Source: Escherichia phage vB_EcoM-pEK20. From it: a stretch of DNA of 64,000 bases. The notes beneath the pieces are model-generated. The model saw only the letters and a list, made by a program, of their open reading frames with translations. It was not told the origin of the DNA and ran no database searches. The translations under genes were made by a program, and so were the position numbers. Positions 23,589 through 53,982 of the stretch are shown one piece after another. How positions within the stretch are numbered: the first letter of the stretch is position 1; every line of letters begins with the position of its first letter. The DNA lies in sequence record MZ868638.1; one strand, written 5' to 3'.

Positions 23589-24104
23589 TCACGGCCTCAC
23601 ATAAACATAGTTTCGTAATTGATGAGCCCATTTGCTCCAATTTCCTACTATAGTTTTTGTATAAACCTTAGTAAGAGTTTTTTGTACTGGAGCCGGTGGA
23701 GGTTCTGTACCAGAGTCACTTCTAGAACCGCCTGATGAACTTTCTTCTTGGTAGTTATAAATCATTTCAACCGTATAACTAAACACTTTACGAAGATTCT
23801 GAGGAGCTCTCCACAAATATAACTGTGTAGATTCATCTTTTGGTAAATCATCCCATGAAGATGCGGTTTCAAAATCATCATTTAATCGGTATTTCAATGC
23901 ATCTGAAGAAAAGCTAAACACACTTTCATATGTTCCATATAAACGGTTACCATCCACCGTAATGCCTTGTGTCGGTTCATAATCTGTTATATTTATTGAC
24001 ACTAAAGTTTCGGTTGTTTCTAACTGTGGAGTAAAAAGGACGTCAATAGACGCCCCTTCCATGTCTTCTCCTAAGTCGGTATTTAAAGGAAGTATTTGTG
24101 CCAT
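23589..24104 (-). CDS. 5.1: gp5.1-like conserved protein between genes 5 and 5.4
   Basis: 171-aa ORF in the position of T4 5.1; function unknown. Confidence 0.6.
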
Positions 24105-24107
24105 ATA

Positions 24108-25841
24108 TTACCCAATATCAATACGAGATCCGTCAACAGTGTATTGTCCTGAAGCTACTGAGCTCATTGTAGACATTGTTTCTGCCCAATCACCGGCAAC
24201 AGTCATATCAACATTACCATTAACAGTCCATTTAACGTTTCCGTTGACGGTGTAATCATGATTCCCTTCGACCTGAGTTTTAGCATCACCTTTAACAAGA
24301 ATATCTGCATTTCCGTCAACAACTATTTTGATATTACCCTTAACGTAAAGAGTTCCATCGCCTTCAACAGTTTTAGATTGGTTACCACGAATAAAGATCG
24401 TGTCATTGCCGTCTATTTGATGGAGGCGGTCTGCCATGTTATAATATATTTCATTAGCGCCAACGTTAACAAGCTTATCGCCAGAAATCAAGAAGTTCCC
24501 GTCGCCATTAGTGATGTCAAAAAGGTCTTCTACAGTTTTACGAGTACGACGCCCAGACGGAGAAACTTCCTCATATGACCCTGTTGGATGAACTAAGCGA
24601 TAACGTTCATTACCTGGAGTATCGTCAAATTCTTGGATATGACCACTTTCTGTTTCCATAGCATGAACATATGGGTACTCGCCACGATAACTTGATTCCG
24701 GTTCTTTAAAAAGGATGCGCGAATCTAATGGAACAGGAGGACCAGCCGGGTCTTCTGGATCGGTATTTCTAGTAACTAAATCGGCACCAACTCCTGGTGA
24801 AGGCGGTGTTTTAACAGGAACACCGTATGATTCCATGTTACCGGTTAAAATAATTGTTGTTACACGTGAAGCGCGTCCTTTAGTCTGTTGGAACCATAAT
24901 GAATCGCGTCCAGATTTGTATGCAGTTTTCCAATCGCCTGTGGCCATTGCTTTAAGCATAGTATTGAATTTTGCTACACCACCAACGCCCATTTGGAAGC
25001 ACATGTTTTCTAATGCCATTTGGCGTGATCTGTTCATTTTAGCATAAACAGGACCTACTTTAGAATTAGAACGAATGTCTTTCTGCATCTTAGCAAGGTC
25101 CTTCTCAAATAACGCTGTTGCTTCTTCTAATGTAATAGTCCCGGGATTTCCTGTTACTTCACGCCCTACTTGATCAGATAACAATTTATTAATTCGAGAC
25201 ATATCTCGGGTCTTTTCCATTACGATAAGGTGTCCAATACCTACTGTAGGATATCCGAGATGGTCCCAATACACTTTATCACGAAGACCTTCGTCACGAC
25301 GTAACATTTCTGTTATTGTAAAATTAGGGTCATCATCTTCTGGAATATTTGCTAAATCTGTATCGTCTGGGTTTATACCATAATCCAAGTTGTTATCTTG
25401 AATTACGTTAGAGTTCGAATAATAACCAGCTTCACCACCTTGGTTTAGTACGTTCGTATCATTACCTAAACGTCGCGGATACTGGCCTGTCGGGTCTGAA
25501 AAACCTTCAAGTCTATTAGGCTTTTCACGTACTATTCCGCCGTATGTACCAAGTACAATCCCGTTTGTTTTCCATTTGTCTAAGAAATGACCATATACTC
25601 GAGTTCCTTCAACAGGACCTGTAACAGAACCACCAATACCTGACATTGATGCAGACGTAATAGGTTGAATAACAGTCATCCATGGAAGTTTTTCTGTAGG
25701 AATACCTTGTACATCACCTTGTGTTCTCTGCGCTGGATGAAGACCAACGACTCGAACTCTAACTCGCCCTTGTTTTAACGGGTCCATTCTGTCCTCGACA
25801 ACACCCACGAACCAATTAAGGCTACTGCTAATCATTTCCAT
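24108..25841 (-). CDS. 5: baseplate hub subunit and tail lysozyme gp5
   Basis: 577 aa; lysozyme domain (GLRDKVYWDHLGYPTVGIGHL) and C-terminal VxGxxxxxV beta-helix repeats. Confidence 0.95.
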   Translation of the reverse strand: MEMISSSLNWFVGVVEDRMDPLKQGRVRVRVVGLHPAQRTQGDVQGIPTEKLPWMTVIQPITSASMSGIGGSVTGPVEGTRVYGHFLDKWKTNGIVLGTYGGIVREKPNRLEGFSDPTGQYPRRLGNDTNVLNQGGEAGYYSNSNVIQDNNLDYGINPDDTDLANIPEDDDPNFTITEMLRRDEGLRDKVYWDHLGYPTVGIGHLIVMEKTRDMSRINKLLSDQVGREVTGNPGTITLEEATALFEKDLAKMQKDIRSNSKVGPVYAKMNRSRQMALENMCFQMGVGGVAKFNTMLKAMATGDWKTAYKSGRDSLWFQQTKGRASRVTTIILTGNMESYGVPVKTPPSPGVGADLVTRNTDPEDPAGPPVPLDSRILFKEPESSYRGEYPYVHAMETESGHIQEFDDTPGNERYRLVHPTGSYEEVSPSGRRTRKTVEDLFDITNGDGNFLISGDKLVNVGANEIYYNMADRLHQIDGNDTIFIRGNQSKTVEGDGTLYVKGNIKIVVDGNADILVKGDAKTQVEGNHDYTVNGNVKWTVNGNVDMTVAGDWAETMSTMSSVASGQYTVDGSRIDIG

Positions 25842-26416
25842 TATGCAATCTCCATCTCACGAATCAAATCTGTGATAAACGAGTTTATATCTTCTTTTGC
25901 AACAATTTTTATTTTACGAAGTTTTTCATTATCTAATACTGCCGCTTCATAAGTATCTACTGCAGCTAAAGGTCCTTTATATTGCGGATACTTACGAGCT
26001 TCATCACCTTTATCGTACCACACTAAAGGCTCGTCCGGATATGAAACCAAATTGTAAAATTTCTCACGGTTCTCGTTAATATGATAAAGAATTTGGTCAC
26101 CGCCAGCATTAGCATATTTCTGAATAGAAGCTTGATACGCTGCTTCCTGAGATGTAATCCAACCATAATACGGATCATAGTTGTCATTACACATCAAAAG
26201 GACCCAGTATAATTGAGGGTTGCCATAAATGATATTCGCTAGTTCTTCAGGACGCGGAGAGCCTTTAATGTAATAAGAACGTAATCTATAATTGGCAGCA
26301 ACACGCTTAAAGTACTCTTTATAGTTACGAAATATGTCTGTCATAGGAATAGTAGGTGCATTCTTATTAACTGTTTTAGCACTATATCCTATTGGGTCGA
26401 AGAATGTAAATAACAA
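25841..26416 (-). CDS. 53: baseplate wedge subunit gp53
   Basis: 191 aa; position between 5 and 4 as in T4. Confidence 0.88.
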   Translation of the reverse strand: MLFTFFDPIGYSAKTVNKNAPTIPMTDIFRNYKEYFKRVAANYRLRSYYIKGSPRPEELANIIYGNPQLYWVLLMCNDNYDPYYGWITSQEAAYQASIQKYANAGGDQILYHINENREKFYNLVSYPDEPLVWYDKGDEARKYPQYKGPLAAVDTYEAAVLDNEKLRKIKIVAKEDINSFITDLIREMEIA

Positions 26417-26443
26417 GATAGTCTCCTTCCAATATGAAATTGG

Positions 26444-26451
26444 TATAAATA
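26444..26451 (+). promoter_or_regulatory. late promoter TATAAATA for gene 4
   Basis: Exact TATAAATA on the plus strand 27 nt upstream of the gene 4 ATG. Confidence 0.7.
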
Positions 26452-26458
26452 ATAATAC

Positions 26459-26466
26459 TATTTATA
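26459..26466 (-). promoter_or_regulatory. late promoter TATAAATA for gene 53 (divergent from the gene 4 promoter)
   Basis: Exact TATAAATA on the minus strand 43 nt upstream of the gene 53 ATG. Confidence 0.65.
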
Positions 26467-26477
26467 AGGAGGACAAC

Positions 26478-26927
26478 ATGGCCTACTCTGGTAAATGGGT
26501 CCCAAAAAATTTAAAAAAATACCGTGGAGACCATACCAAAATAACGTATCGTTCAAACTGGGAAAAATTCTTTTTCGAATGGTTAGATAAAAATCCAGAA
26601 ATTATTGCATGGGGTAGTGAAACAGCAGTAATTCCATATTTTTGTAATGCTGAAGGTAAGAAACGTCGATACTATATGGACATATGGATGAAAGATGCAT
26701 CAGGTCAAGAGTTCTTTGTAGAAATAAAACCAAAGAAAGAAACTCAACCACCTATTAAGCCTGCAAATCTTACGACTGCAGCTAAGAAACGTTATATGAA
26801 TGAAATATATACCTGGTCTGTGAACTGTGACAAATGGAAAGCTGCCTCAGCTGTTGCTGAAAAGAGAAATATAAAATTTCGAGTTCTAACCGAAGATGGT
26901 CTTAGAAAACTCGGATACAAGGGGTAA
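26478..26927 (+). CDS. 4: head completion protein gp4
   Basis: Start at [18 protein letters not shown] (T4 gp4 N-terminus) after AGGAGG; the track ORF is extended upstream. Confidence 0.92.
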
Positions 26928-26929
26928 TT

Positions 26930-27751
26930 ATGAGCATATTCCAAATTATATCTGAAGGCGTACAAGCCCCTAAGATTGCTCAGTCTATGAATGAAAGAAA
27001 ATGGATTGAGATAGGATTAGAATACAAGAAAGCTAAAGAGAAAGGAATCACTGCAAAAGCATTTGCAGAATCAAAAGGAATAAAATACTCGTCGTTTACA
27101 TCTGCAATGTCTAGATATGCATCATCTATTAAGACTGCACAGAAAATTGAAACGCTTGAATCTAAACCTAAAAATAAACTCAATAAGCAAGAACGTCAAC
27201 TTCTGATGATAAACTCGTTTCGCAGTTCAATACGAGAAAAGATTAGAAATGAAGGCGCAGCAGTAAACAACAAATCATCTAAGTGGTTTGTTGAAACAAT
27301 TAAGAAAAGTGTAAAAGGTCATAAAGTAGTCAAGCCTACGCCAGGCAAAATTTATACTTACGTTTATGATGCTAAACATAAAGATACTCTGCCATACTGG
27401 GACCGATATCCTTTGATTATTTATTTAGGATTAGGTAAACATAATTTGATGTATGGGTTAAACTTGCACTATATCCCACCTAAAGCACGTCAACAGTTTC
27501 TTGAAGAATTGCTGAAGCAATATGCTAGCACAACTACTATTACTAATAACACAAAGTTGAAGATAGACTGGAGCAAGGTGAAAGGATTTCAAGGTGCTGA
27601 CAAAATGATTAAAGCATACCTGCCAGGCCACATTAGAGGAACAATAACAGAAATAGCTCCTAAAGACTGGGCTAACATAATCATGTTACCTACTCAGCAG
27701 TTTATGTCAAAAGGAAAACGTTTCTCTGCGAATACTGTTTGGAAATCTTAA
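26930..27751 (+). CDS. 2: DNA end protector protein gp2
   Basis: 273 aa; T4 gp2 length and order. Confidence 0.9.
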
Positions 27752-27853
27752 TTCTATTCTCTTCCGTTCTTCTGATATTCCGTTGAACCAGATTAATGGA
27801 AGAGACCTAAAACCATTATACTGCATTTTTATTAAAGCGTTTTTGAGGTGCTT

Positions 27854-28438
27854 ATGACTCGTCCAACGAGACAGATTTTTAACCAAACAAATATAACAAA
27901 CTTTGTTGTGGATATCCCAGATAGTACACGAACTTCAGGTTTTGTGCTCAATGCCCAAACGGCTCCATTGCCAGGTGTGAGAATTCCTGTTGTTGAAACT
28001 GTGACAGGCACAATGGGGCTAGGACGTGCAATGCGTGCAGGCACCACATTTGAATATGACCCTTTTATTGTACGATTTATAGTTGATGAAGACATGACGT
28101 CCTGGATGAACATGTATAAATGGATGCTCAGCACTAATAACTATATAACCGGCCATAATACGGCCCACTCTGATGGTCCTGAGTTTGTTACTTTGCACAT
28201 TTTAAACAACAATAAGACCGAAGTAGTTTTGACGGCAAATTTCTATAAACCATGGATTTCCGATTTGAGTGAAATTGAATTTAGTTACACTGAAGACTCT
28301 GACCCTGCCGTTACTTGCGTAGCAACTATTCATTACGCGTATATGACGATAGAAAAAGATGGCGAAGTCATTGTATCTCAACAACCACGTCAAGCAGTCG
28401 AATCTAAATCCATTTCTAGACACCCTTCCTTGCGTTAA
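27854..28438 (+). CDS. 3: tail completion and sheath stabilizer protein gp3
   Basis: ATG at 27854 after GAGGTG; position between 2 and 1; about 18 aa longer than T4 gp3, so the C-terminal end is less certain. Confidence 0.8.
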   Translation: MTRPTRQIFNQTNITNFVVDIPDSTRTSGFVLNAQTAPLPGVRIPVVETVTGTMGLGRAMRAGTTFEYDPFIVRFIVDEDMTSWMNMYKWMLSTNNYITGHNTAHSDGPEFVTLHILNNNKTEVVLTANFYKPWISDLSEIEFSYTEDSDPAVTCVATIHYAYMTIEKDGEVIVSQQPRQAVESKSISRHPSLR

Positions 28439-31788: not shown

Positions 31789-31863
31789 GGCCCTGTAGCT
31801 CAATGGGAGAGCTGTCAGCTCATAACTGATAGGTAGCTGGATCGAAACCAGCCAGGGTCACCA
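31789..31863 (+). tRNA. tRNA with CAU anticodon (Met or lysidine-modified Ile type), CCA encoded
   Basis: Hand-folded cloverleaf: acceptor GGCCCTG/CAGGGTC, D-arm GCTC-AATGGGA-GAGC, anticodon arm GTCAG-CTCATAA-CTGAT, T-arm GCTGG-ATCGAAA-CCAGC. Confidence 0.75.
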
Positions 31864-31866
31864 ATC

Positions 31867-31943
<77 letters not shown>

Positions 31944-49394: not shown

Positions 49395-49570
49395 CCCGTG
49401 AACAAGCTAATAAATTGATGGACCTTATCCGTGACTTACGTGAAGCCGATTCAGATTTGAATGATGTAGCTTATCATGCGGTAAATGATAACGAAGACTT
49501 TTATGAAAATCAGGTTGATGCTTGCCAGAATGCTTTGGTGAATTTTGTTGAAACTTTAATTGGTGAATAA
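49391..49570 (+). CDS. small acidic protein, family member
   Basis: MTREQANKLMDLIRDLREADSD...; below the ORF-track cutoff but N-terminus matches the 47402 and 48830 paralogs. Confidence 0.5.
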   Translation: MTREQANKLMDLIRDLREADSDLNDVAYHAVNDNEDFYENQVDACQNALVNFVETLIGE

Positions 49571-49571
49571 T

Positions 49572-50105
49572 ATGAAAACTGTAATTGAAACAACCGAGTT
49601 GTTTGGTGATTTATGTATCGAAAAACGTGGTTATGTGTATGTTCTGACACAAGAAGATGATGCTGCTACTATTCTTCCTATGGAACTGGACAAGATTTTG
49701 AAACTCAATCCGTCTGGACGTCGTCGAGAGGTAATTAACATTGGTAAAGACCTCCAAGTTCGTTTTTATCCTGGTCTTTACAATGTGGCTAATATCGAAA
49801 CTGAAGACGAATGTTTTTCTATTAATAATTGGAAAACATTCGTCACTAAGGTGAAAGAATTAATGGAATCTGAAACAGCCAAAAAGGCCAAACTTCAATG
49901 GGCTAAATGCCGTAATGCTTTTATTACAAATCAGGACCGCCCTGACTATACAACAGTCCTAGGCGTTAATCCTTCTTATGAAGATGGTGATGTCGTAGTT
50001 ATTCGTCAAATTGATGACCTTCGTCAACATATCGTTACATTAGACAAAGATGAAGCAGTTGCTCTTAAAGCTTATCTTGATTCTATTATCCCGACTTTGA
50101 AATAA
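49572..50105 (+). CDS. hypothetical protein (177 aa)
   Basis: ATG at 49572. Confidence 0.6.
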   Translation: MKTVIETTELFGDLCIEKRGYVYVLTQEDDAATILPMELDKILKLNPSGRRREVINIGKDLQVRFYPGLYNVANIETEDECFSINNWKTFVTKVKELMESETAKKAKLQWAKCRNAFITNQDRPDYTTVLGVNPSYEDGDVVVIRQIDDLRQHIVTLDKDEAVALKAYLDSIIPTLK

Positions 50106-50114
50106 GGAATTATT

Positions 50115-50588
50115 ATGATTATCAATGAAAACTCTTGGCACTTTAAAATTTATGCCGCGTTCAATAGTACATGGAATCGCCCGAAAACGTTGTGTGCTTA
50201 TTTTTGGAAAACGTTAATCCCGGTATTGGCTGTTTCAATTATTGGATTTGCGATTTTAGCAGCAGTCGTAATCATTGGCCAGGAAATTTTAACTAAATTC
50301 TTTGTTTTTAGCAGTCTATGGACATTAGTTCCAGCCTCAATTGGCGTAGGCATTTTAATGGTAGCAGTCATGGCTTTTATTGCTACCGGGTTGGTAATTG
50401 GCCCGTCTTGGCTGTTAGACAAATATAACGACAGAAAATATTATAAAGAAATTGAGCTCATTGCGCAAAACCAAGAACGAATTAAAAATGGACTAGAGCC
50501 TATTGAACGTAAGAAATCATTAATAGGTGAATACCTTAAAGCTCGTAAAGAAAAAATCTGTCCTACTCTTGAATATAAGGCTAAATGA
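50115..50588 (+). CDS. membrane protein (157 aa)
   Basis: Two or three hydrophobic helices (LIPVLAVSIIGFAILAAVVII, LVPASIGVGILMVAVMAFIATGLVIG). Confidence 0.6.
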   Translation: MIINENSWHFKIYAAFNSTWNRPKTLCAYFWKTLIPVLAVSIIGFAILAAVVIIGQEILTKFFVFSSLWTLVPASIGVGILMVAVMAFIATGLVIGPSWLLDKYNDRKYYKEIELIAQNQERIKNGLEPIERKKSLIGEYLKARKEKICPTLEYKAK

Positions 50589-51574
50589 TGAAAACGATTG
50601 TTAAGGCTTACTTTGGTAGCCATCTTTATGGAACGTCTACTCCTGAATCTGACATCGATTTTAAAGAAATTTATGTCCCTCATGCTCGTGATATCTTGAC
50701 CGGTAACGTTAAAGAACACATGAGCAAGAACACGAATAACACATCTTCTAAGAACACAAAAGACGACGTGGACCATGAGTTGTATAGTCTCAAATATTTC
50801 TTTAAACTAGCTGCAGATGGCGAAACCGTCGCATTAGATATGCTTCACACTCCACCAAGTTTAGTAGTTAAATCTGATTTGCCTGATGTATGGAAGTATA
50901 TTCAAGATAACAGGTCTCGTTTCTATACCACTAACATGAAATCTTATTTAGGGTATGTCCGTAAGCAAGCTTCTAAATACGGTGTCAAGGGTTCTCGACT
51001 GGCTGTTCTTCGTCAAGCCCTTAAACGTTCTAATGAATGGGGACAATACTTTGATAATGGTGCAGTAATTCGTTTATCACATATGAAGAATGTTCTGCCT
51101 GTAGGTGAATTTGCTTCGTGGATTGAAACTGAAAACGAGAAAACAGGTAAGCAAACATTCTATAATCTGTTAGACCGTAAATTCCAAGACACGTTAACCA
51201 ATAAAGAGTTCAATGCCATCCTGGTTAAACTGGAAGAGAACTATGGTGAACGTGCTCGTAAGGCAGAAGCTAACGAAGGTATTGATTGGAAAGCATTGAG
51301 TCATGCATGTCGTGGTGGACTTCAACTATTAGAAATTTATAAAACCGGCGACCTGGTTTACCCACTTCAGGATGCTCCATTTATTCTCGATGTTAAGCTC
51401 GGTAAACATACGTTTAAAACTGTACAAGAATTCCTAGAAGATATCGTCGACCAAGTTGAACATGCGTCAGAACAAGCTGCCAAGAACGGTATGCAACAAA
51501 AAGTAGATATGAGTTTCTGGGATGATTTCCTTGAACAAGTCTATCTCGAAAATCATAATTCTTACTATAAATAA
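50585..51574 (+). CDS. nucleotidyltransferase-fold protein (Pol-beta superfamily signature)
   Basis: N-terminal GS-x3-GT-x4-SDIDF (YFGSHLYGTSTPESDIDFKEIYV), the classic hG[GS]...[DE]h[DE]h NTase motif. Confidence 0.65.
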   Translation: MMKTIVKAYFGSHLYGTSTPESDIDFKEIYVPHARDILTGNVKEHMSKNTNNTSSKNTKDDVDHELYSLKYFFKLAADGETVALDMLHTPPSLVVKSDLPDVWKYIQDNRSRFYTTNMKSYLGYVRKQASKYGVKGSRLAVLRQALKRSNEWGQYFDNGAVIRLSHMKNVLPVGEFASWIETENEKTGKQTFYNLLDRKFQDTLTNKEFNAILVKLEENYGERARKAEANEGIDWKALSHACRGGLQLLEIYKTGDLVYPLQDAPFILDVKLGKHTFKTVQEFLEDIVDQVEHASEQAAKNGMQQKVDMSFWDDFLEQVYLENHNSYYK

Positions 51575-51605
51575 GTAGATAAATAACCATTAACTTGAGG
51601 TAAAT

Positions 51606-51872
51606 ATGAAAAAATTAGTAATTGGTTTATTCGCAGTAATGATGGCATTCTCTGTTGGTGCTACCACGGGTGCAGGAGCTGGTGGTAACCAGTCTTCTGG
51701 GCCTTCTAATGGTTCGGTAAATGCATCACATTCTCAGGGTATTGAGAACATTAGATCAAGCTATATTAATAGCACCGCCGGACAAGCAACTGAAGCATGG
51801 TCAAAGGGCCGAGTAGTTACTCGCTCCGTATTCTGTGATATGCCTAATTATGTTGCTAAGTGCGATAAGTAA
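51606..51872 (+). CDS. exported Gly/Ser-rich small protein (88 aa)
   Basis: Signal peptide MKKLVIGLFAVMMAFSVGA; two C-terminal Cys. Confidence 0.6.
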   Translation: MKKLVIGLFAVMMAFSVGATTGAGAGGNQSSGPSNGSVNASHSQGIENIRSSYINSTAGQATEAWSKGRVVTRSVFCDMPNYVAKCDK

Positions 51873-51877
51873 ATGTG

Positions 51878-51893
51878 GGGACCTTCGGGTCCC
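51878..51893 (+). other. UUCG-tetraloop hairpin (GGGACC-UUCG-GGUCCC) followed by UUUAGGGGGU
   Basis: Perfect 6-bp stem right after the stop at 51872; same GGGGAC/UUCG/UAGGGGGU pattern as at 33313. Confidence 0.55.
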
Positions 51894-51922
51894 TTTAGGG
51901 GGTTAAAATATTTAAAAAAGTG

Positions 51923-51953
51923 GTGTACATGCTTTTAGGATATGTTATTATAG
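51923..51953 (+). promoter_or_regulatory. early promoter (GTGTAC -35 variant, TATTAT/TTATAG -10)
   Basis: Pattern shared with the other early promoters; TAGACCTATC element. Confidence 0.5.
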
Positions 51954-51989
51954 ACCTATCGAAACGAAATGAGTAAATTGGAGAATAAA

Positions 51990-52970
51990 ATGTTCAACGT
52001 TCAAATCAAAAAAGGTATCTATCGTAATAACGAAATCTCTGGTTCTTATGTTGCCACAAAGACCTGGTTCCCGGCAAAGCTTAATCCTGAATGTTCCCAC
52101 TTAGGTGATGGTAAAATTTTCGTTATGATTGATGGTTCTGAACGTGGAGTATGGGTCTTCAAATCAGACATCGTAATGGAAGGAGTTGAGACGTCACCAG
52201 TTGCAGTTGTTGAAAGCACTGAAGATATGAAAACTCGTATCAACAAACGCTTTAAAGTAATGAACATGATGACGAATGGCATTATCGATGGCAAAATTCG
52301 TTCACTCATTATTTCAGGTGCAGCCGGTATTGGTAAGACGTATTCTCTGGATAAAGCACTTAATAATGCTAATGATAACGGTTTCATCAAATACAAAAGC
52401 ATTAATGGTAAAATCTCCGGTATTGGCCTTTACGAACAACTTTGGCTCAACCGTGATGCGGACAGCGTTCTCTTAATCGACGACGTTGACGTATTCTCGG
52501 ATATGGACATCTTGAACCTTCTTAAAGCAGCATTAGATACCGGAGATAAACGCAAAGTTTGCTGGAGCACTGCGTCATCTTATCTCGATGATAAGGGTAT
52601 TGATAAAGAATTTGAGTTTGAAGGTACTATCGTTTTCATTACAAACGTTGATATCGATAAAGAGTTAGAACGCGGTTCGAAACTTGCCCCACACCTTCAA
52701 GCTTTAGTATCTCGTTCAGTGTATCTCGACCTTGGAGTACACTCTAATGAAGAGATTATGGTTCGAGTTGAAGATGTAATATTATCTACTGACATGATGC
52801 AGAAACGTGGTCTGACAGATGCAGAAACGTATAAAGCATTGTCCTGGATGAAGGCTAACGTATCTCGTCTTCGCAATGTATCATTACGTACGGCTCTTTA
52901 CGTAGCAGATTTTATTTCAACTGATAAAGATGGTTGGGAGGAAATCTCTGAAGTAACTTTACTGAAATAA
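51990..52970 (+). CDS. AAA+ ATPase-like protein (326 aa)
   Basis: Walker A GAAGIGKT and Walker B VLLIDDVD; ATG at 51990 after GGAG. Confidence 0.65.
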   Translation: MFNVQIKKGIYRNNEISGSYVATKTWFPAKLNPECSHLGDGKIFVMIDGSERGVWVFKSDIVMEGVETSPVAVVESTEDMKTRINKRFKVMNMMTNGIIDGKIRSLIISGAAGIGKTYSLDKALNNANDNGFIKYKSINGKISGIGLYEQLWLNRDADSVLLIDDVDVFSDMDILNLLKAALDTGDKRKVCWSTASSYLDDKGIDKEFEFEGTIVFITNVDIDKELERGSKLAPHLQALVSRSVYLDLGVHSNEEIMVRVEDVILSTDMMQKRGLTDAETYKALSWMKANVSRLRNVSLRTALYVADFISTDKDGWEEISEVTLLK

Positions 52971-53108: not shown

Positions 53109-53396
53109 ATGGATTTTATGCAAAAAATTAAAGCCGCAGTAGAACTCTATGCTCATCGTATGGTTAGTTCTACAATGCAATATAGCGAGGAGGTTCGCCA
53201 GGACTCTTCCTTGAAAGGAAAAACTAAAGCCTTAATTACCTTAGATCGTTTGCAAAAGAATGCCATAGAGATGCTCCAGTACGACAAGGCTGTATATAAG
53301 AAAGAACAGGAAGAGAAACTTAAATCTGAAAAATTACAGAAAATTCCGAAATCGGTTTGGTTCAGTGGAAAAAATACCGAAAAAAGTTTCTTTTAG
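53109..53396 (+). CDS. hypothetical protein (95 aa), helical and Lys/Glu-rich
   Basis: ORF after AGAGGA. Confidence 0.55.
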   Translation: MDFMQKIKAAVELYAHRMVSSTMQYSEEVRQDSSLKGKTKALITLDRLQKNAIEMLQYDKAVYKKEQEEKLKSEKLQKIPKSVWFSGKNTEKSFF

Positions 53397-53454: not shown

Positions 53455-53982
53455 ATGAACGCTAAAGATATTTTCAACCTGGTAAATTATAACGACGGTA
53501 AATTTAAATCTGAAGCACAAAGCAAGTTCTTTAATGACGTTGCTTATGGTAACGAGATTACCGTGGACGGAGGTCAGATTTTCAAATCTCGCTGGAATTG
53601 GATTGCTATCATCGATTCAGTTGGAATTGTGGAAGTCTACAAAAACACTAACAAAAAACGTACATTATTCTGGTCTCGTGAAACTAACGAGCAGTACAAA
53701 AAGGATAAAGCATCTCGTTTATCCAAAGTAACCCAGGAAGATATCGAGTTTATCAAGAAAGATATCGAGATGTACGAAAATTTAATCGCTGAAGACCAGG
53801 CAGTACTCGACAAGTTTGACGAAATTAAAGCTTCTCGTGAAATCCCTGACTTCATGAAAGAAACAGTAAATGAACGATACGCTCTCACTTCAGAACGTAT
53901 TGCAAACTATACAAAACAGAAAGCAGAACGTATTAGTACTCTTCGGAAATTTGAAGAACGTTTAAAGACGGTTCACGCATAA
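53455..53982 (+). CDS. hypothetical protein (175 aa)
   Basis: ORF after GGAGG. Confidence 0.6.
   Translation: MNAKDIFNLVNYNDGKFKSEAQSKFFNDVAYGNEITVDGGQIFKSRWNWIAIIDSVGIVEVYKNTNKKRTLFWSRETNEQYKKDKASRLSKVTQEDIEFIKKDIEMYENLIAEDQAVLDKFDEIKASREIPDFMKETVNERYALTSERIANYTKQKAERISTLRKFEERLKTVHA

Follow-up and report, generated by a model that had tools for sequence, protein, structure and literature searches.

Two Pseudomonas enzymes, PfRlaP of P. fluorescens and PaRlaP of P. aeruginosa, add one or two nucleoside monophosphates (NMPs) to the 3'-OH of RNA, are inactive on DNA and protein, and prefer Mn2+ and, as RNA substrate, the 5' half of a cleaved-tRNA mimic, according to a December 2025 preprint (PMC12776372). 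The same work proposes RlaP as an antidote to nucleotide-excising ribotoxins such as RloC and lists the bacteriophage T4 protein NrdC.11 in the RlaP family, in sequence similarity network (SSN) cluster 5, as an RlaP "of unknown function"; Iyer and colleagues predict the same RNA-repair role for phage RlaP enzymes (PMC7824862). Here we analyse a stretch of 64,000 nucleotides from Escherichia phage vB_EcoM-pEK20 (MZ868638.1), hereafter the window, in which the orthologue of NrdC.11 (the NTase) is followed by a small secreted protein and by the orthologue of T4 NrdC.10, an AAA+ ATPase, and is preceded by a membrane protein. The original prediction for this DNA had seen in the NTase and the ATPase a possible nucleotide-signalling or defence/counter-defence module. 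Our analysis makes it likely that these are instead independent genes and not one system: an RlaP-type RNA-repair nucleotidyltransferase, a separate AAA+ ATPase and lineage-variable envelope proteins.

The NTase is encoded on the + strand at positions 50585..51574 and comprises 329 residues, which include the motif FGSHLYGTSTPESDIDF; the nucleotidyltransferase motif of this open reading frame (ORF) reads GSHLYGTSTPESDIDF. The protein matches Pfam family PF10127 (49.3 bits, E 6.8e-13; gathering score 23). PF10127 is RlaP, the "RNA repair pathway DNA polymerase beta family" of RNA-ligase-associated Pol-beta nucleotidyltransferases. A canonical RlaP profile, which we built from bacterial RlaP proteins, aligns to residues 5-108 of the NTase, placing G11-S12, D23, D25 and D63 on the GS, SDyD and elDl motifs of the profile. 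These residues are invariant or nearly so in our NTase alignments (A1, A4). For structure prediction of the two enzymes, homologues were gathered with distant family members from phages VAP7 and MD18 as queries. The Pol-beta assignment of the original prediction is thus borne out, with a Pol-beta fold, all three catalytic carboxylates present and D23, D25 and D63 aligned to the RlaP catalytic aspartates. One of the outcomes that it had named as refuting does apply, however: the NTase falls into an accessory family of RNA repair that is already known. The window contains a single RlaP-like ORF.

The AlphaFold2 model of the NTase (predicted local distance difference test score, pLDDT, 90.5) shows the nucleotidyltransferase domain followed by a long C-terminal helical domain. 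The P. fluorescens and P. aeruginosa RlaP enzymes and T4 NrdC.11 have PF10127 membership and the GS/DxD/D set in common with the window protein, and the AlphaFold2 model suggests that an N-terminal nucleotidyltransferase domain with a C-terminal helical domain may be a further common trait. Sequence and profile searches of the NTase against the PDB returned no match, and those against NCBIfam and PADLOC yielded nothing above threshold.

The genomic surroundings of cellular relatives connect this branch of the family to RNA repair. Scanning bacterial and archaeal genomes with the NTase profile gave 80 loci, 77 of which hold a clear relative (25-52% identical). A canonical full-length RlaP gene, scoring 242 bits to PF10127, is present in 40 of these 77 loci and lies directly downstream in nearly all of them; Pnkp is found in nine and Hen1 in eight, in the order Hen1-Pnkp-long RlaP-RlaP. 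Given these RlaP, Pnkp and Hen1 neighbours, we regard the NrdC.11-like proteins as a "long RlaP" subfamily residing in genuine RNA-repair operons.

The long form of the bacterial pair (about 325 amino acids) usually precedes the canonical RlaP (about 270 amino acids) with overlapping stop and start codons, as exemplified by loci L244:4088-9790, L181, L198, L216 and L188, and the pair often stands behind Hen1-Pnkp. This suggests a two-nucleotidyltransferase arrangement in bacteria, of which T-even phages keep the long form only.

By analogy with the biochemistry of the bacterial family members, NrdC.11 would be an RlaP-type terminal nucleotidyltransferase that employs D23, D25, D63 and a divalent metal to add one or two NMPs onto the 3'-OH of broken RNA, above all of tRNA halves. 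After attack by nucleotide-excising anticodon nucleases of the RloC type, such additions would make the damage resealable by the phage Pnkp and RNA ligase 1, and NrdC.11 would serve as a counter-defence accessory of RNA repair. Phage ST0, which is 98% identical, encodes Rnl1, the PseT kinase and Rnl2 more than 80 kb from the NTase, so ligation partners that accept a 3'-OH product are available. The tRNA gene arrays that enclose some distant phage homologues, described below, also fit this reading. A counter-defence role, as raised in the original prediction, is plausible for the NTase through RNA repair and not through nucleotide signalling.

Several observations weigh against this assignment. 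The match covers no more than the N-terminal half of PF10127 (profile positions 23-145 of 249), and the phage NTase clade carries an extra beta insert at about residues 177-201 of the AlphaFold2 model, so that the substrate or the product could differ from those of the bacterial enzymes. The window NTase exceeds canonical RlaP in length by about 60 residues and belongs to an SSN cluster separate from that of the characterized RlaP enzymes; its activity is a prediction. The RlaP biochemistry, from which the phage function would follow by analogy, comes from a single preprint and from bacterial enzymes only. Finally, the phage RNA ligase and kinase genes do not adjoin the NTase.

The alternative that survives best, although we consider it unlikely, is that the NTase matures or repairs tRNA 3' ends, restoring part or all of the CCA sequence, and does not act on the anticodon loop. 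Its homologues in Phaeobacter phage MD18 (L003:1950-12883) and Rhodobacter phage RcXuper (L004:1-12876) lie inside tRNA arrays of about 20 genes, one relative is annotated as a tRNA nucleotidyltransferase, and RlaP labels RNA of full-length tRNA size in vitro (PMC12776372). Set against this, the RlaP enzymes studied show little nucleoside triphosphate specificity (PMC12776372), and the bacterial context is that of Pnkp-Hen1 break repair. Most loci have no tRNA genes nearby: they occur within 10 kb in only 5 of 40 other distant viral NTase loci, and the two tRNA genes of the window, tRNA-Met CAT and tRNA-Arg TCT (31789-31943), are about 19 kb from the NTase. As tRNA proximity is seen in a minority of loci only, we keep the tRNA 3'-end function as a rival and not as the principal interpretation. 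Comparison with tRNA nucleotidyltransferase and poly(A) polymerase family models did not identify the NTase as a class II CCA-adding enzyme. The original prediction had named CD-NTase, MNT and CCA-adding enzymes as families to be compared; the protein fell into none of them, and RlaP (PF10127) is its significant family.

Two further features were seen in tRNA-rich loci. MD18 and RcXuper both have a conserved gene of about 320 amino acids two ORFs downstream of the NTase homologue. Another viral contig with an NTase homologue has a 12-tRNA array at whose end ARAGORN predicts a tmRNA-like gene of the permuted type, with the tag ANDESYTPVAQAA (L082:10911-11319).

The second enzyme, encoded on the + strand at 51990..52970, comprises 326 residues and contains the Walker A motif GAAGIGKT and the Walker B motif VLLIDDVD. 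Although its ORF opens at 51969, translation almost certainly starts at 51990, because a GGAG lies 6 nucleotides upstream of that ATG and all homologues begin at that methionine; the length originally given for the protein therefore stands. The AlphaFold2 model (96-sequence alignment, pLDDT 95.7) is organized as an N-terminal five-strand beta domain (residues 1-64), an AAA+ core (77-250) and a helical lid (253-324). G113 and K116 of Walker A, D164 and D165 of Walker B, N219 (sensor 1) and R242 (the SR arginine, or arginine finger) are invariant in the alignment and R300 (sensor 2) is nearly so, from which the enzyme is predicted to be active. The reading of the 326-residue P-loop protein as an AAA+ ATPase is thus confirmed by the full set of superfamily features, including the lid.

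The closest counterpart is T4 NrdC.10 (PHROG 1250), which is 77% identical, equal in length and identically placed relative to nrdC.9 and nrdC.8; nothing substantive distinguishes the two. Beyond this family, sequence searches gave only weak generic P-loop matches, searches of the PDB by sequence and profile only non-significant hits to mS29, TnsC, Cdc6 and ORC1, and a BFVD fold search only uncharacterized phage AAA+ proteins. Neither a family match nor a partner context of a clamp loader (gp44/RFC) or helicase loader was found, nor the AAA_3 or AAA_5 match and VWA-domain partner of MoxR-type proteins. Compared with the PS1-hairpin remodellers (MCM, MoxR/NorQ/CbbQ and NtrC-type) and with DnaA, Hda, Cdc6 and RFC, the ATPase shows no family-specific Pfam or PDB match (best E 0.06-0.9) and lacks the VWA, sigma-54, clamp or origin-binding partner domain of these groups; unlike them, it has an N-terminal beta domain of its own, which is variable or absent in homologues. 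We propose that NrdC.10 is an AAA+ remodeller, catalytically intact and probably assembling into rings, whose variable N-terminal domain is an adaptor; it would act independently of the NTase.

That the two enzymes instead form one module, in which the NTase makes or consumes a nucleotide signal or tags a target and the ATPase is the effector, sensor or remodeller, is quite improbable on the distribution of the genes. We compared viral contig sets comprising 79 loci with the NTase and 80 with the ATPase. Of the 79 NTase loci, 34 have the ATPase no more than 10 kb away and the other 45 lack it; of the 80 ATPase loci, only 3 contain the NTase. Outside the Tevenvirinae the two genes mostly occur without each other: the ATPase has no NTase nearby in an Ackermannviridae Vibrio phage, in jumbo phage RaK2 and in a Schizotequatrovirus, and the NTase has no ATPase nearby in Tulanevirus, Pseudotevenvirus and roseophage-type genomes. 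Aeromonas phage 60AhydR15PP, a Tulanevirus, encodes an NTase orthologue of 53% identity at 59.2 kb and an ATPase orthologue of 56% identity at 118.2 kb, which places the genes 58 kb apart, and on one IMG/VR contig the two genes occupy non-overlapping stretches with about 19 kb or more between them. Where both are present, variable insertions of 91-2272 bp separate them. The bacterial relatives of the NTase, moreover, pair with RlaP, Pnkp and Hen1 and not with the ATPase, and no PADLOC, CD-NTase or cGAS-type matches were obtained.

The transcription signals between the genes point the same way. The 114-bp spacer between T4 nrdC.11 and nrdC.10 contains a strong terminator (GGGAGCC-TTCG-GGCTCCC followed by T6ATTT), then an early-type promoter (GTTTACA, 17 nucleotides, TACTAT) and then the nrdC.10 ribosome-binding site. 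In the window, a GGGGACC-UUCG-GGUCCCU hairpin just 3' of the 88-residue ORF (51877..51894, + strand) matches the T4 terminator in position, and a promoter-like site preceding the ATPase gene (51924..51951, + strand; TGTACA, 16 nucleotides, TATTAT, with a TG upstream) corresponds in position to the T4 promoter. The hairpin folds with -12.9 kcal/mol, not better than shuffled sequences (z -1.0), and promoter-like sites are no more numerous here than expected from shuffled sequence. Because neither window signal is statistically distinctive, the argument for separate transcription units draws mainly on T4. Taken together, the evidence says that the NTase and the ATPase are not one unit; they are neighbours by shared ancestry and synteny, and the proposal of a signalling or defence module finds no support in genes that separate so freely across phages.

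One observation counts against full independence: every Tevenvirinae locus that has the ATPase (34 loci) has it on the same strand as the NTase and downstream of it, and a lineage-specific partnership is therefore conceivable. We nevertheless judge it very improbable that the T-even NrdC.11-NrdC.10 order reflects a true partnership in a two-enzyme counter-defence module. If it did, the ATPase would extract, remodel or sense damaged tRNA/ribonuclease complexes while RlaP, Pnkp and Rnl1 rebuild the tRNAs, and the partnership would represent a counter-defence module not yet described.

The least probable role that we weighed for the NTase, to which we give hardly any credence, is that of an MNT/KNTase-like enzyme nucleotidylating a protein or a small molecule, for instance by AMPylation of a HEPN toxin of the host. 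A fold search does return KNTase, MNT and HalB-type minimal nucleotidyltransferases as structural neighbours. Against such a role, the protein scores 14.2 bits with the MntA model (NCBIfam NF047752), for which the cutoff is 60, its significant family is RlaP, it lacks the Rx4-6H motif, and PfRlaP labels no E. coli proteins (PMC12776372). No separate HEPN gene adjoins the NTase in the ORF listing of the window. HalB of the Hailong system shares 13% identity with the NTase, which has no HalA-like partner. CD-NTase-type signalling finds no support either, as the NTase has no CD-NTase signature, effector or PADLOC match and cGAS and DncV are not among its structural neighbours.

Returning to the ATPase as an independent enzyme, its genomic context elsewhere suggests where it may act. 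In 48 of the 80 ATPase loci, among them jumbo contigs of 317-360 kb, all or part of the series gp32-UvsX-(83 aa)-UvsY-[variable]-ATPase-[347 aa]-UvsW-like superfamily 2 helicase is seen. The gene adjoins topoisomerase gp52 in a Schizotequatrovirus Vibrio phage and lies in the gp52-motA-asiA region of a Tulanevirus Aeromonas phage. These contexts give a weak indication that the ATPase is a non-essential accessory factor of DNA recombination or replication. The indication is tempered by the relatedness of the recombination-context contigs, which are not phylogenetically independent, and by T4 itself, VAP7 and RaK2, where the ATPase lacks such a context. The NrdC.10 family is large, with more than 1600 clusters at 50% identity. 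Past the UvsW-like helicase, the gene order continues with phrog_11279-phrog_11758-phrog_11058 (L132, L161, L163, L144, L253).

T4 tolerates deletions spanning nrdC.11 to mobD.3 in a genome-reduction study (PMC9825161). A T4 record of 159,752 bp (OL964745.1) matches only NTase residues 291-329, the last 39 codons of nrdC.11, and we attribute this partial match to a deletion that removed most of the gene.

The two proteins that accompany the enzymes appear to be lineage-variable components of the envelope. The gene upstream of the NTase (50115..50588, + strand; phrog_944, PHROG match 5e-53) encodes 157 residues with a hydrophobic stretch at 25-103 in a Kyte-Doolittle scan, in agreement with a predicted multi-pass membrane protein, and its stop codon overlaps the NTase start codon (ATGATG). 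Of the 79 viral loci, 41 have a homologue that precedes the NTase by 0-1.8 kb; T4 has none and carries the mobD homing endonuclease at that place. Between the enzymes, the ORF at 51606..51872 (+ strand; phrog_2243) encodes 88 residues beginning MKKLVIGLFAVMMAFSVGA, of which residues 1-24 are hydrophobic on the Kyte-Doolittle scale, as expected for a signal peptide; the protein also has a Gly-rich region and, towards its C terminus, two cysteines. The T4 annotation shows no ORF in the interval from nrdC.11 to nrdC.10. Translated searches (tblastn) recovered homologues of the NTase in 1542 phage records and of the ATPase in 1311, compared with only 102, nearly all from Mosigvirus, for the 88-residue ORF; these numbers indicate that the ORFs are real genes and not chance, and that the smallest of them is a lineage-specific insertion. 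Across Mosigvirus, the 88-residue protein is about 80-98% identical and varies from 86 to 93 residues, with insertions and deletions in the Gly-rich part, while the NTase and ATPase flanking it in those same genomes are 98-100% identical. It is thus a fast-evolving protein, predicted to be exposed at the envelope.

All four ORFs lie on the + strand where the original prediction had placed them, with the motifs, the signal peptide and the upstream membrane protein as described there. Judged by its nucleotide sequence, the window is from a Mosigvirus, an RB69/JS09-like T-even phage: the 5.6 kb around the locus share 97-98% identity with many phages of this genus, among them ST0, JS09 and DCP548. 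Gene order matches mobD.1 / nrdC.11 / nrdC.10 / nrdC.9 / nrdC.8 of the annotated T4 genome, with orthologues of MobD.1 (y05I family) at 49560-50105, of NrdC.9 at 53109-53396 and of NrdC.8 at 53455-53982; the NTase is 78% identical to NrdC.11. The locus belongs to the variable block of early genes that extends from tk/rI to nrdC in T-even phages. The genes are already known and annotated: databases contain identical or near-identical proteins from many Mosigvirus phages, and the names nrdC.11 and nrdC.10 of the T4 counterparts go back decades, although the original prediction had not recognized them as characterized T4 proteins.

In many deposited T-even genomes, nrdC.11, nrdC.10 and other nrdC.x ORFs nearby carry the name "thioredoxin", which looks like an annotation error spread from the nrdC gene-name prefix. 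The ST0 record labels a 59-residue ORF "helicase loader". GC skew changes sign near 26 kb of the window (about 24000-28000), consistent with a switch in transcription direction between late and early gene blocks.

The locus cautions that adjacency in the variable regions of T4-like genomes is poor evidence of shared function. For the ATPase, the recurrent position of NrdC.10 homologues between uvsX/uvsY and a uvsW-like helicase offers a concrete starting hypothesis for a very large phage family. For the NTase, T-even phages, with their classic Pnkp/Rnl1 tRNA-repair pair, provide a natural system in which to ask whether RlaP defeats RloC-type nucleases.

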